Assembly (NCBI GenBank): GCA_039621445.1 | Contig: CP154954.1 | Location: 44,309,847-44,373,846 of the forward strand | From: Euglena gracilis | Taxonomy: Eukaryota | Direction: 5' to 3' | Length of the DNA: 64,000 bases | Shown here: in pieces, positions 7,901 to 20,176 of the stretch | Layout: the number at the start of each line of letters is the position of its first letter | Position numbering within the stretch: the stretch's first letter is position 1 | Notes under the pieces: model-generated | The model's input: the letters and a program-made list of their open reading frames with translations, nothing else | Database searches by the model: none | What the model was told of the DNA's origin: nothing | Position numbers and translations under genes: made by a program

Positions 7901-10900
7901 CTGCGCAGCCAGAAACAACTTACCCAGAGTGGAAGTCACCCTGGCTTCTTAAGCCCCCCTGCCCTCATCATAAAACCTGTCATTATTGAATTGTTTGGAG
8001 ACAATGTCTCGGGTGGCAGTCCCCTCCCTGCCAACCAGGCCATTCCTTAAGGACTCCGTGGGGGGGGCACTGGCTAGCCATTTTCTTACACTGGGAAAAA
8101 TGGACTAGCTGGACCCCCCTCCCGGGGGGGGATTCAGGGGTGCAGACCCCTTTCCTCTGGCGCTGCGCTCCGAGGTGGAAACGAGGGCCTAATGGGTGTT
8201 TTTTTTTTTGCTGATTTTGTTCCAAAAAACCCCCAAACAGCCAAAAATGGGCATTTGAGGGTCCAAAAAAATCTAACCGCTTCGCGCCGGTCAGTGGAAA
8301 AATTTTCCGTAAGTTAGCCCTGCTGGCGAACCCCCACCCACCCCCAAGGATTTCCATTGGCCAAACTAGACTAGCTGCCTGGAGGGGGGGAGGGGTACTG
8401 CGAACCCTTAAGCAAAGGCCTGCCGCCAATTGAACCTGTCAATTTGCCCCTGAGAGTTTCAGCATTTTTTTTTTTGGCGAAAACCATCGAACTTTTCAAA
8501 AGTTTATGCATCATGCATATTTGACCAGAAAAATTCGGAAAAATTGCCACTTTTTGGGTGAAGGGCAACCCAGGCCAACTCTCACGGCGCAGGCCTCACA
8601 AAGCGTTGGCCTATAACACTCTTCATCGGAGCCATGAATCCTGCTGGCAGCTTCGCTCATCACAGCCCCACCGCAGTGGTGCCTCTTGCTTCTCCGAATC
8701 CCTGCGGAGCAGACTGGCGGTGCTTCGCAGGAGGCGAGGGGGGCAGGAAGGGACTCTCCAGCATGCCCTGGATGCTGTCCATGCACAGCATCAGCCAGAA
8801 GAAGGTGAACGCCAGCATGTACCCGTAGAACGGGCCCCACTTCCTGGAGTCATTGCGGGCTGTGGCTCCTGGCAGGCCCATCCCCGGGAAATGTCGACAG
8901 GCCAGCCAGTATCCAGACCCGGACAGTTTGTTGGGCGGACCTGCGGTTGGGGCGGACTCAATCAAAGGACCCGATTACACAGTCTCCTGGAGGGGTGGGG
9001 AGGAAGGGGCAGAACACCCAAAACATTGATGGATAGGGGAAAATTGATATCAAAGGCCTCGGAAAATTGTGGAAATTGCGGGAAAGTTGCGGAAAATTGC
9101 AGTTTTGGGAATTAGTACTTTTGCTGGAGGGTACTTGGAAAAAGTTCAAAAATTTGGCCATTTGCAATATAAGTGTGAATATTGAGCTGTTCATTTTTTC
9201 TTTAACAAAAAGTCTAAAAACATGATTTTTGTAATTTTGGGAACATGCTGATTCTGGAAATATGGAGTTTCTTGAGGAAAAAACCCAAAAATACAAACTT
9301 TGGTATGAGGCAAAATCTGGACGCGCAAAAAAAAATCGATATTATTTCCCAGCGGAAATTGGGGAAAGGCCTAAAAAAGGCCCAGATATTGCCAAATTTT
9401 GTCAAATTTTGTAAAATTTGGCAAATTTCGGCAAATTTGCAACAAAAACAACAACAAAAAGCACCTGGGTTCCCTCGTCAAAGACGTTCAATGAATGGCC
9501 GGAACTCATTTTGCCTGGCATCTCAGTTTCATGTGGAAAAATTGCAGAAGGGGGAAAAATGCAGAAATTGCAGAAAAATTGCAGATATTAATAGGCGGGT
9601 GGAGAAACTGCACAAGGGCCGGTCAAAAACTGCACTGCAAAAAACTGCAAAAAACTGCAAAAAACTGCAAAAAACTGCAAAAAACTGCACTTCAACAAAA
9701 AAATGGCGTAAACAAGCTGAAATGGTGTGCATATGCAAAATAACGTAAATTGCAACCACATGAGCAGGCCCCAATTCACCAAAATTTTCTTTGCACAGCT
9801 TTGAAATTGATGACGACAACAATGGAAGCAGTCAATCAAGGTACATTGTACATGATTTTTCATGCACGGGAATGCAAATCATTTGTTTGGATGCCGGTTC
9901 ACACCAGTTTCCTGCACCAAATTGGGTCTAGATCATCCTAAATTGAATGTCACGATGTGAGTGGGAGAAGCGCAACCCAATCCCTTATCGTCTCCATGGG
10001 AAGGTGGAGATCCTTCAGCAGCTGCATCAGGAATGCGGTGTGGTTGAGGCCTTGCTAATTTGTTACAAATCTCCAACACAAATGCCATGAACCACAGAGA
10101 AGGAATGGCAGGGATTGGGCCCACCATCTGGTCCGGGAAGAGGTCGTGGCAGATGTGGAACTGCAGCATTGCCAAGCTATTTTTCCTTCCTCTCCGCCAC
10201 TCAACAACACACACCCCACAAACAAAAGTGATCCAGTGTCTTGTAAAGCTTGGGTGGTCCAGAGGGAAAACTGCCGAATTCCTTCATCCATTCCCCTTCG
10301 GTGAACAAAAGAAAACCGTCAGATGTGACACCACATGCACAGGTTGGAGGTGGAGCAATTTTGGGTAGTGAGCCAAAATCCATCTGACTAACAAAGTCGT
10401 CCAGCAAAATGACCTCTTCTCGGTCATAGTCATCGAACAACACGGTTCCACGTGATCCATCACCCATGAGTGGTTATCGACATCGTCCGGACCGAAGACG
10501 ACACAGGCCATTCTGGTCTTCCCTGTCCCAGCGTCACCATACAGAACTACACCTTGTGCTTCCCAATTTTCCTAGAGAGCAACTTCAGCCAGTGCTCTTG
10601 GATGATGGGTGAATGCTTGGAAGTGATCCTGCAACAGCTCCTCCATCTTAGCATTGTGCTTGACCTCTTCCAAGTCTGTACCCTTGCCTTGTGAGGGCGT
10701 GTGAAAATCTTCCGAGACCTCGGCATTGGGTCATCCCCTTCGGGATCAAAAGTGATTGACAAAGCGGGATTGCACTGCCACCGCTTCTTCTCCATCTCCT
10801 GCCGGCGGTTGCGCACCTGTTATGGGCATGCATCTCTCTAATATTAAAAAATGCATGTACGCGTCAGCACTTCAGCGGCTGGGAGCAGGCTCCTTCGTCA

Positions 10901-19900: not shown

Positions 19901-20176
19901 TGACCATTTCCTCAACAAATTTCCTGGTGCTTGACCTTTGGTCCCTGGCCGTCCCCCACCTCCACCCCCCTGGGGGGGGGGGTCGGGCCATTCCTACTGT
20001 GATGTTGTGCCTGGGACCCCCGTTGCGCAAGGAGGCGGCCCCCTGGCCAGCAGGTACTCGGGGTCCACCTTCGAGGCGGAGCGCTTCAGCGCCGCCCTGG
20101 GTGCGGGTGGCGTGGCGGGGGCGGGGGAGCCCCGCTCCGAGGCGCCGTCCCCCGGGGCGGCGTGTGGGGCTGCCAT
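854..20176 (-). CDS. Multi-exon gene (~25 exons): SAM domain - bestrophin-like (UPF0187/algal type) membrane channel domain - SAM domain, with Pro/Ala-rich linkers
   Basis: GC-rich exon islands join in frame from ATG 20176 (MAAPHAAPG) to TGA 854-856. Approximate exons: 20049-20176, 19203-19290, 18000-18080, 17593-17693, 17054-17104, ~16500-16614, 16006-~16153, 15866-15947, ~15450-15507, 14706-~14786, 14269-14384, 13753-13899, 13195-13253, 12257-12441, 11759-11863, ~8716-8854, ~7632-7698, 7275-~7387, 6844-6896, ~6353-6444, 3444-3622, ~3198-3317, 2338-~2487, 1730-1984, 854-~1105. A few linker junctions are ambiguous, so it could be two genes. Confidence 0.7.
1170..1491. mobile_element. Degenerate copy of MITE family A
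   Basis: Shares cgatataag..caggtggg..ggtctggacccc, cccctggcaggtgggggg, cacctaaa and a tatcgaaacctg end with 6450-6840. Confidence 0.7.
2338..3290 (-). CDS. SAM domain 2, 2 exons
   Basis: [74 protein letters not shown]. Shares DGSR-x-KHL...DW-x-RLCP-x-IGPR with SAM 1. Confidence 0.8.
4711..5952. mobile_element. Non-autonomous TIR element with CCGTGA(A/T)TT subterminal repeats and a nested insert
   Basis: Perfect 19-bp TIR CAGGGATCCTCACACGTCC. No clear TSD. Internal 4875-5125 is homologous to 58735-59030 and is followed by a TA tract. Confidence 0.85.
5123..5309. repeat. (TA)n/(GA) microsatellite
   Basis: Direct reading. Confidence 0.95.
6450..6840. mobile_element. hAT-like MITE (family A), probably acting as a nonconventional intron (intron 6445-6843)
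   Basis: TIR CAGGGTTCGATATAAGGA / TCCTTATATCAAACCCTG (17/18). Perfect 8-bp TSD gttgaccc at 6442-6449 and 6841-6848. Confidence 0.92.
7660..14786 (-). CDS. Bestrophin-like channel domain, about 8 exons
   Basis: Joined: ...[61 protein letters not shown]...[76 protein letters not shown]...EDDINL. Hydrophobic segments, the F-S-L-N-x-A-Y-x-R-R-E motif and the E-x-P-F...D-D-I motif resemble bestrophin-family proteins. Confidence 0.75.
8036..8422. mobile_element. MITE family B copy, intron-internal
   Basis: TIR CAGGCCATTCCTTAAGG / CCTTAAGCAAAGGCCTG (15/17). TSD ctgccaac/ccgccaat (6/8). Confidence 0.85.
9592..11395. mobile_element. TIR element with AAAAACTGC subterminal arrays, nested in the right TIR of a family C element (~9034-11410)
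   Basis: Imperfect TIR TAGGCGGGTGGAGAAACTGCAC / GTGCATATTTTCCACCCCCTG. Duplicated tattaa flanks. Outer ends resemble 21290-21815. Confidence 0.75.
10200..11080 (-). pseudogene. Degenerate CRESS-DNA-virus-like Rep (SF3 helicase, possible HUH remnants)
   Basis: QGKGTDL (10671-10691), in-frame TAG at 10572-10574, Walker [13 protein letters not shown] (~10512-10547), a frameshift, then [16 protein letters not shown] (Walker B ~10393-10410) and VTSD (motif C-like). Upstream SWCFVFF and [10 protein letters not shown] may be motif I/II remnants. Confidence 0.8.
12541..12746. repeat. Degenerate TA/CA microsatellite
   Basis: Direct reading. Confidence 0.9.
12747..13023. mobile_element. Foldback MITE with ~95-bp TIRs, inserted in a TA microsatellite, with internal TTAGGG-like units
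   Basis: GGCAGCCTCCAAC...TTGCGTTATTGATGGA.TAGGGTTAG mirrored at 12930-13023. Flanked by ATAT. Confidence 0.9.
16580..18030 (-). CDS. SAM domain 1, split over 4 exons
   Basis: Joined translation [69 protein letters not shown] matches the SAM pattern (W-S-x-E-E-V ... DG..L..L...D...L...GPR) and is paralogous to SAM 2. Confidence 0.8.
17699..17996. mobile_element. hAT-like MITE (family B) acting as a nonconventional intron (17694-17999) within SAM 1
   Basis: Ends CCGGCC.../...cttaagcagaagcCTG. TSD gaaggcgc (17691-17698) / gaaggtgc (17997-18004). Internal similarity to 8036-8422. Confidence 0.88.
18640..18960. repeat. (CA)n/(CGCA)n microsatellite
   Basis: Direct reading. Confidence 0.97.

Follow-up and report, generated by a model that had tools for sequence, protein, structure and literature searches.

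Sixteen nonconventional introns in one Euglena gracilis gene: terminal helices in the published 3/5 register and a possible link to 8-bp target site duplications

The stretch of DNA analyzed here, called the window in the following, comprises 64,000 nucleotides of the Euglena gracilis genome (NCBI GenBank assembly GCA_039621445.1, contig CP154954.1, positions 44,309,847 to 44,373,846 of the forward strand, with position 1 as its first letter). The introns described here lie in one minus-strand gene, the host gene, which runs from a methionine codon at 20176 to a stop codon ending at 7395 and possesses 17 exons and 16 introns, none of which has GT-AG or GC-AG ends at the junctions chosen here. 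In 15 of these introns, numbered I1 to I16 in the direction of transcription, a terminal helix joins both ends and thereby brings them together, leaving three unpaired nucleotides on the 5' side and five, sometimes six, on the 3' side. We think, with a probability of about 0.93, that these are the known nonconventional (NC) introns of euglenids and that the 3/5 register is the published noncanonical splicing code. The original prediction, which was made from the letters of the window, had named seven of the 16 introns, had recognized their common register, and had proposed that an RNA-level excision system measures from a terminal stem and is tuned to undo transposon insertions. Because the register corresponds to the published code 5'-N3CDG-/-CH'GN5-6, followed across the junction by R, the core observation was already known, and together with most of its interpretation it is a correct rediscovery of a known system and no new biology. 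In this way, a splicing code that had needed genome-wide annotation and genome editing was re-derived from raw sequence alone. The remaining interest lies in the arithmetic link between the two spacers and the 8-bp target site duplication (TSD) of transposons, and in intron I3 as a candidate for a transposon-born NC intron.

Agreement with the published splicing code

The formula of the noncanonical code, as given by Nomura 2025, applies to 61.2% of the NC introns (PMC12501133). In 87,843 non-slidable NC introns of Euglena agilis, a spacer of 3 nt separates CAG from the 5' end, and CTG occupies positions -8 to -6 with a spacer of 5 nt behind it. The rule was then examined by knock-ins in E. 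gracilis, in which splicing was lost upon single changes in either CAG or CTG. The 5' spacer must have exactly 3 nt, as one nucleotide more or less abolishes splicing, and the 3' spacer has 5 nt, with one additional nucleotide being tolerated and a loss of 1 nt or a gain of 2-3 nt becoming progressively worse. A purine is preferred as the first base of the following exon, the triplets must be backed by pairing, whose removal destroys function, and even fully synthetic 50-nt introns that follow the code are spliced (all PMC12501133). [quoted passage not shown] NC introns are reported to be removed after the conventional introns and as circular RNA, as far as the available portions of two sources describe it (PMC6221363, PMC11282704).

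The introns of the present gene resemble euglenid NC introns in several respects: they come from the same group of organisms and have non-GT-AG borders, a terminal helix, spacers of 3 and 5-6 nt and a purine thereafter (PMC12501133; for the borders of the earlier description, the available part of PMC3935182). On the 5' side, the cut would be placed 3 nt upstream of the helix, and on the 3' side 5, occasionally 6, nt downstream of it, usually just ahead of a purine. A probably non-spliceosomal activity would attach to the end of the helix and cut at set distances from it. The present analysis itself provides the register, the pairing and the finding that transcript-derived proteins lack the introns, while the requirement for helix and spacers and the RNA-level mechanism are taken from the literature. 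That excision occurs at the RNA level and is measured from the terminal helix, as originally proposed, agrees with the published knock-in mutagenesis. The ideas of transposon tolerance and of a MITE origin had likewise been published before: the transposon-tolerance reading is given in the Discussion of the 2025 paper, which still terms the origin of NC introns unclear (PMC12501133).

Junctions and tests against chance

The junctions of nine introns (I8-I16), which are present in the DNA and missing from the proteins, are supported by transcript-derived proteins, those of six by alignment to an ortholog, and that of I7 by the reading frame. E. gracilis EG_transcript_24550 of EukProt (P0001, 263 aa) matches the minus-strand exon 12257-12439 with 100% identity, and its 90% cluster also includes another E. 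gracilis fragment (P0004, 121 aa) along with a full-length protein from Euglena longa (P0003, 563 aa). The joined exons give an open frame of 606 aa that includes the complete P0001 and P0004 from residue 2 on and shares 455 of the 558 residues that align with P0003. The 100% identity to the E. gracilis entries and the E. longa ortholog in the cluster identify the locus as a euglenid nuclear gene. Protein searches with two single upstream exons gave no match, and the upstream exons were positioned via P0003.

For the transcript-supported introns, every donor/acceptor pair that exactly reproduces the E. gracilis proteins was enumerated, which resulted in 24 options. Exactly six of these have an uninterrupted helix of at least 5 bp in the 3/5 register, and they are distributed as one in each of six introns (14385-14705, 13254-13752, 12442-13194, 11864-12256, 8855-11758 and 7719-8744). 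Six of the nine transcript-supported introns therefore fit the register without interruption and eight of nine if one mismatch is allowed, I16 being the one that fails. Such a helix was found in 1.1-1.3% of 200,000 random pseudo-introns, and its occurrence in six of nine introns has a probability of about 2-5e-6, allowing five junction options for each. A comparable picture emerged when both intron ends were folded with a linker: the mean terminal pairing energy of the 16 introns was -20.2 kcal/mol, versus -8.8 kcal/mol for 1000 pseudo-introns drawn from the same 12.8-kb region (p = 2e-9 in a Mann-Whitney test). A purine is the first base of the downstream exon in all nine transcript-supported introns and in 13 of 16 overall. 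The upstream introns, placed by ortholog or frame, all fit 3/5 or 3/6; for the ortholog-based ones, the register was used to pick among compatible junctions. I1 may serve as an example, as the ortholog spans its junction with DPEYLL on one side and ALQKY on the other, and only 19291-20048 among five compatible junctions has a 3/5 helix.

All seven introns named in the original prediction display the described arrangement of three unpaired nucleotides, helix, partner strand and five unpaired nucleotides. Their junctions hold in six cases. Five of them (14385-14705, 13254-13752, 12442-13194, 11864-12256 and 8855-11758) are compatible with P0001/P0004 at 100% identity, each being the sole protein-compatible option with a 3/5 helix of at least 5 bp, and the sixth, 19291-20048, is read through by the E. 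longa ortholog P0003. For the seventh, 15508-15865, the helix is real, but the junction is misplaced by one base and leads to an in-frame stop at residue 270. The frame across this intron (I7) is fixed by conserved exons on either side, and with either 15507-15865 (3/6) or 15506-15867 (3/5) it stays open, over 606 and 605 aa, respectively. Two further introns offer an alternative helix or junction: I8 has a competing 10-bp helix with a total overhang of 7, and the synonymous alternative 13896-14267 for I10 is without a 3/5 helix.

The transcribed strand could also carry a trace of constraint on RNA pairing. All three non-Watson-Crick positions in the helix of I1 are G.U on the transcribed strand and would be A.C on the opposite strand, and the first six helix positions over 15 introns contain nine G.U versus two A.C (p = 0.065), a count that is biased because G.U was counted as pairing in the choice of junctions. 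This excess is a hint at an RNA-level constraint on the sense strand and represents a trend only.

Table 1. Positions and properties of the host gene, its introns and the inverted-repeat elements in the window
Feature	Position	Strand	Length	Register and helix, or termini	Flanking 8-mers or TSD	Support and remarks
Host gene	7395..20176	-				17 exons, 606-aa open frame; P0001, P0004 and P0003 mapping
I1	19291..20048	-	758 nt	3/5; 12-bp helix including 3 G.U; CAG/CTG	4/8	ortholog
I2	18052..19206	-	1155 nt	3/5; helix 2+10 bp, one T.C mismatch	5/8	ortholog, 6 options
I3	17694..17999	-	306 nt			ortholog; ambiguous junction, alternatives 17697-18002 to 17699-18004
I4	17109..17596	-	488 nt	3/5; helix 4+4, G.G mismatch; closing triplets TGG/CCA		ortholog
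I5	16614..17052	-	439 nt	3/6 (4/5 if slid by one); 8-bp helix		ortholog
I6	16152..16509	-	358 nt	3/5; 8-bp helix	GCCATCCC/CCCATCCC, 7/8	ortholog
I7	15507..15865	-	359 nt	3/6; alternative 15506-15867 is 3/5		frame only; next exon begins with G
I8	14808..15449	-	642 nt	3/5; closing pair C.C, then 8 bp		transcript
I9	14385..14705	-	321 nt	3/5; 13-bp helix; CAG/CTG		transcript
I10	13897..14268	-	372 nt	3/5; helix 1+9, C.A mismatch		transcript
I11	13254..13752	-	499 nt	3/5; 5-bp helix; CAG/CTG		transcript
I12	12442..13194	-	753 nt	3/5; 7-bp helix; CAG/CTG	5/8	transcript; nested long-TIR MITE
I13	11864..12256	-	393 nt	3/5; 6-bp helix; closing triplets CTT/AAG		transcript
I14	8855..11758	-	2904 nt	3/5; 5-bp helix; CTG/CAG		transcript
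I15	7719..8744	-	1026 nt	3/5; 11-bp helix; closing triplets CCC/GGG		transcript; nests element 8036-8422
I16	7442..7629	-	188 nt	no 3/5 helix; best helix 8/9 bp at offsets 8/6		transcript; non-GT-AG
TIR element	6450..6840		391 bp	TIR CAGGGTT(C/T)GATATAAGGA	perfect 8-bp TSD GTTGACCC
TIR element	8036..8422		387 bp		CTGCCAAC/CCGCCAAT, 6/8	same family as 6450..6840; nested in I15
TIR element	23796..24077		282 bp	ends CATGCTTGTGCTTA / CAGGCTTGTGCTTA	perfect TSD GGTCCAAG
TIR element	36638..37287		650 bp	TIR CCAGGGCAGAACGG	perfect TSD ATGCCCCC	CAG one base inside end
TIR element	39898..40318		421 bp	ends CAGGGAATT..TAAGG	perfect TSD GCCTCCAT	same family as 6450..6840
TIR element	43644..45494		1851 bp	TIR CAGGCACCTATA	perfect TSD CTCATCAG	no frame >94 aa wholly inside
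TIR element	51175..52630		1456 bp	TIR CAAGCACCTCTG	perfect TSD CTCCCCAT	tandem-repeat interior

Deviations from the code

Several points weigh against an identification of the register with the published code. The strict CDG/CH'G triplets occur in only five of the 16 introns (I1, I9, I11, I12, I14), with I7 joining them through a wobble pair, and the other ten are without them. The 3/5 register is kept with other closing triplets in the transcript-supported introns I13 (CTT/AAG) and I15 (CCC/GGG), which also have longer helices, as well as in I4, I2 and I6. I5 is a 3/6 intron and I16 has no helix at 3/5 at all; for I16, the exact transcript-derived protein allows one junction only, which shows neither GT-AG ends nor the register. 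In addition, all junctions derive from proteins predicted from transcriptome contigs and from the ortholog, and are therefore known up to sliding or synonymous ambiguity, and the seven upstream introns are not independent tests of the register because it helped to choose their junctions.

The introns without CDG/CH'G agree with the 38.8% of NC introns that lie outside the published formula. The originally predicted independence of the register from the stem sequence is thus real and slightly broader than that formula, and natural, transcript-supported 3/5 introns with CTT/AAG or CCC/GGG in place of CDG/CH'G bear on the strictness of the published code.

Inverted-repeat elements in the window

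Elements with inverted termini were searched by exact 8-bp direct repeats flanking them, to which a scan for exact TIRs added 36638-37287, and copy numbers were judged within the window. Six TIR elements with 12-19-nt TIRs have a perfect 8-bp TSD, and a seventh, 8036-8422, has 6/8. The ends of the six are CAGGG, CAGGC, CATGC/CAGGC, CAAGC and C-CAGGG; five of the six start with CA, and exact CAG...CTG termini are found in three. The terminus CAGGnnnTnnnnTAAGG is common to three elements, which we refer to as the CAGG..TAAGG MITE family, and 8036-8422 is a fourth copy. The flanks of the six elements look non-coding.

The lengths of flanking direct repeats beside exact TIRs were distributed as 0:353, 1:146, 2:36, 3:7, 4:16, 5:1, 8:3 and 13:1, with 8 as the sole mode beyond 5. 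The six raw 8-mer hits of the direct-repeat scan, versus a shuffle mean of 3.2, are not significant alone, and the elements are taken as real because long TIRs and CA-starting ends mark them, not because of the raw 8-mer count. A looser TIR scan (10/12 matches) gave mostly noise, and its exact 8-bp repeats numbered 4 versus 0.2 in shuffles.

Elements of the hAT superfamily create an 8-bp TSD and have short TIRs with the terminal motif YARNG and a target preference for nTnnnnAn; an 8-bp TSD is also made by the P superfamily. The window elements resemble non-autonomous hAT elements in their perfect 8-bp TSDs and in TIRs of 12-19 nt that start with CAGGG or CAGGC. When compared with the hAT motif, three elements end in CAGGG, and the remaining ones have CAGGC, CAAGC or CATGC. 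The TSD has T at position 2 in five of seven elements and A at position 7 in five of seven, which we take to resemble the hAT target preference. Unlike an autonomous hAT source, no transposase was seen in the 64-kb window, and neither of the two longest elements (43644-45494 and 51175-52630) wholly contains a frame of more than 177 aa, the frames there being repeat-derived. These two elements share the TIR CA(G/A)GCACCT.. at 9/12 positions, and their interiors consist of short tandem repeats, for example of GGCCATTTTAGGCC and CAGCATCGCC units, with no long open reading frame.

Origin of the introns

The two spacers of the register, 3 and 5 nt, add up to the 8-bp TSD of the resident CAG...CTG TIR transposons, which are hAT-like, and the NC introns could be old copies of such elements. 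An element that has landed in an exon would then be removed together with one copy of its TSD, leaving no scar, so that an exon insertion would be born as a scarless intron that has no splice sites to evolve, with I3 being such an element and the CAGG..TAAGG MITE family a live source. This is a tentative reading, to which we assign somewhat less than an even chance, and the step that the offsets sum to the TSD of a resident family and thereby permit the scarless removal of insertions is only partly supported. A candidate is I3, for which we chose the register N3 + CAGGCTTCTGCTTAAGG... ...GGCCGG + N5. On the minus strand it begins with TTC CAGGCTTCTGCTTAAGGGTTCGCAG and its 3' end reads ...GGCCGG GCGCC, with TTC as the start of the next exon. 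Beyond the 3-nt spacer, 27 of the first 30 nt agree with the right terminus of element 8036-8422, and the flanking 8-mers GCACCTTC/GCGCCTTC, in this test composed of 5 exon and 3 intron nucleotides on the left and 5 intron and 3 exon nucleotides on the right, are identical at 7/8; an element ending precisely at the helix ends and making an 8-bp TSD would originally have left these two 8-mers the same. When I3 and three family members are aligned together, they match at the ends only, with about 45% identity inside, and a comparison of the introns with the rest of the window gave short matches only, none of the introns being a complete copy of a different element. Flanks of 7/8 are likewise found in I6, which because of this match can be slid over about nine positions. 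Two of 16 introns with flanks of at least 7/8 correspond to a permutation p of 0.012, which is post hoc to the choice of the I3 junction; the mean flank identity of 3.38 (p = 0.041) is likewise post hoc, as the I3 register was taken from the family match, and the earlier junction choice gave 3.19 (p = 0.068). Further support comes from the six elements with perfect TSDs, the CA-starting ends of five of them, the mode at 8 among flanking repeats and the excess in the looser scan, as well as from a recently acquired NC intron of the E. agilis gapC gene that has 8-nt direct repeats according to the available text (PMC4770533). On the other side, the flanks of the seven originally named introns are at chance level, with 4, 1, 1, 2, 5, 3 and 1 of 8 identical positions compared with a cross-intron mean of 2.7. 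The original prediction had arranged them as an age series with a TSD similarity of up to 8/8, but no intron within 8855-20048 reaches 8/8, and since the flanks are at chance level and flank identity does not vary with helix length among the 16 introns (Spearman 0.21, p = 0.43), no such series is visible in the seven examples. Its equation of 3+5 with the TSD of hAT elements is thus backed by the six perfect-TSD elements and by I3 and I6, while the seven examples are without signal and no hAT transposase was seen. Moreover, no evidence places any of the six elements in an exon or marks it as spliced, and in 36638-37287 the CAG is located one base inside the end, so that excision by the 3/5 rule would fail to remove 2 nt. 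A 3' spacer of 6 nt, which is tolerated, also misfits a strict ruler of 8 nt, from which it follows that the 3' cut is not set by such a ruler. Finally, an 8-bp TSD is not diagnostic of hAT, because Merlin elements with 8-bp TSDs are reported from E. gracilis in the available part of the source (PMC8101967).

Alternatively, the 3/5 geometry could be solely a property of the splicing enzyme, with the junction repeats resulting from double-strand-break repair or microhomology and the match to an 8-bp TSD being coincidental. Milanowski 2016 read the 8-nt repeat of the gapC intron as break repair, as stated in the available part of the paper (PMC4770533), 84.4% of E. agilis introns, including conventional ones, have short junction repeats (PMC12501133), and most introns of the host gene have flanks at chance level. 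Break repair does not readily account for I3, which has a recognizable TIR-family terminus exactly at +4 together with 7/8 flanks, and whose family is represented in the window by copies with 8/8 and 6/8 TSDs, and we think that this explanation is rather unlikely. Very improbable is a loss of the segments at the DNA level by somatic transposon excision, as pre-mRNA intermediates, the order of removal and circular intron RNA have been published (available portions of PMC6221363 and PMC11282704) and the spliced synthetic 50-nt introns are without transposon content (PMC12501133). Returning to a transposon origin, the window adds modest evidence for a beginning of some NC introns as transposons whose insertion duplicates 8 bases. 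Should the 8-nt overhang indeed be the TSD footprint of a transposon family, the hypothesis of a MITE origin, which has stood open since 2014, could be tested directly. In the literature searched, we found no paper that states the arithmetic of 8 as a TSD or names a concrete transposon family, and none that links hAT to Euglena; on TSDs and TIRs of euglenid introns, the search yielded the 2024 review (PMC11282704) and otherwise unrelated work.

Comparison with known systems

Endonucleolytic splicing that is guided by structure, as in the bulge-helix-bulge of tRNA introns and in HAC1/XBP1, is independent of the spliceosome and places its cuts by their distance from a helix and not by sequence. 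The Euglena introns are similar in this dependence on distance and probably in their independence of the spliceosome, but their geometry differs, as the 3/5 overhang is asymmetric and sits where the helix is open. Introner elements and MITE-derived spliceosomal introns of Micromonas and Aureococcus are comparable in another respect, as they are TIR/TSD elements born as introns in which the TSD makes removal exact (described in the accessible text of PMC11282704). Introners are removed by the spliceosome, however, with GT/GC-AG sites that partly stem from the TSD (3 nt in Micromonas; same source), whereas here the helix sets the position and splice-site dinucleotides are lacking. Among DNA transposons, Merlin shares the TSD length with the hAT-like elements of the window, having TSDs of 8-9 bp and terminal GG in the available description (PMC8101967).

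Host gene product and further sequences within the gene

The N-terminus of the 606-aa product has a weak SAM-like match and its C-terminal membrane part a bestrophin-like match, both below the curated cut-off, and these putative assignments from sequence are a lead only. None of the 16 introns of this gene is conventional, and all are non-GT-AG, while about 28% of the introns in E. agilis are conventional (PMC12501133).

Some introns contain further recognizable sequences. The interior of I2 (18640-18960) carries a microsatellite of about 300 bp composed of (CA)n with (CGCA)n blocks. Within I14, at 10201-10571 on the minus strand, two overlapping frames with a P-loop (GDAGTGKT) and a DD-rich, Walker-B-like stretch look like a frameshifted NTPase remnant; Pfam gave only sub-threshold AAA matches for these frames (best E = 0.02), and a viral Rep remnant was discarded as a reading. 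In I12, a nested palindrome at about 12747-13025 has arms of about 70 nt starting with (T)GGCAGCCTCCAAC and is flanked on both sides by ATATATAT in AT-rich DNA; with its ends (T)GGCAGCC, the terminal GG and a possible 8-bp TSD, it looks more like the Merlin elements reported for E. gracilis. Exon 7 (15866-16151), which has about 36 extra low-complexity residues compared with the same part of the E. longa ortholog, may contain a further small intron.

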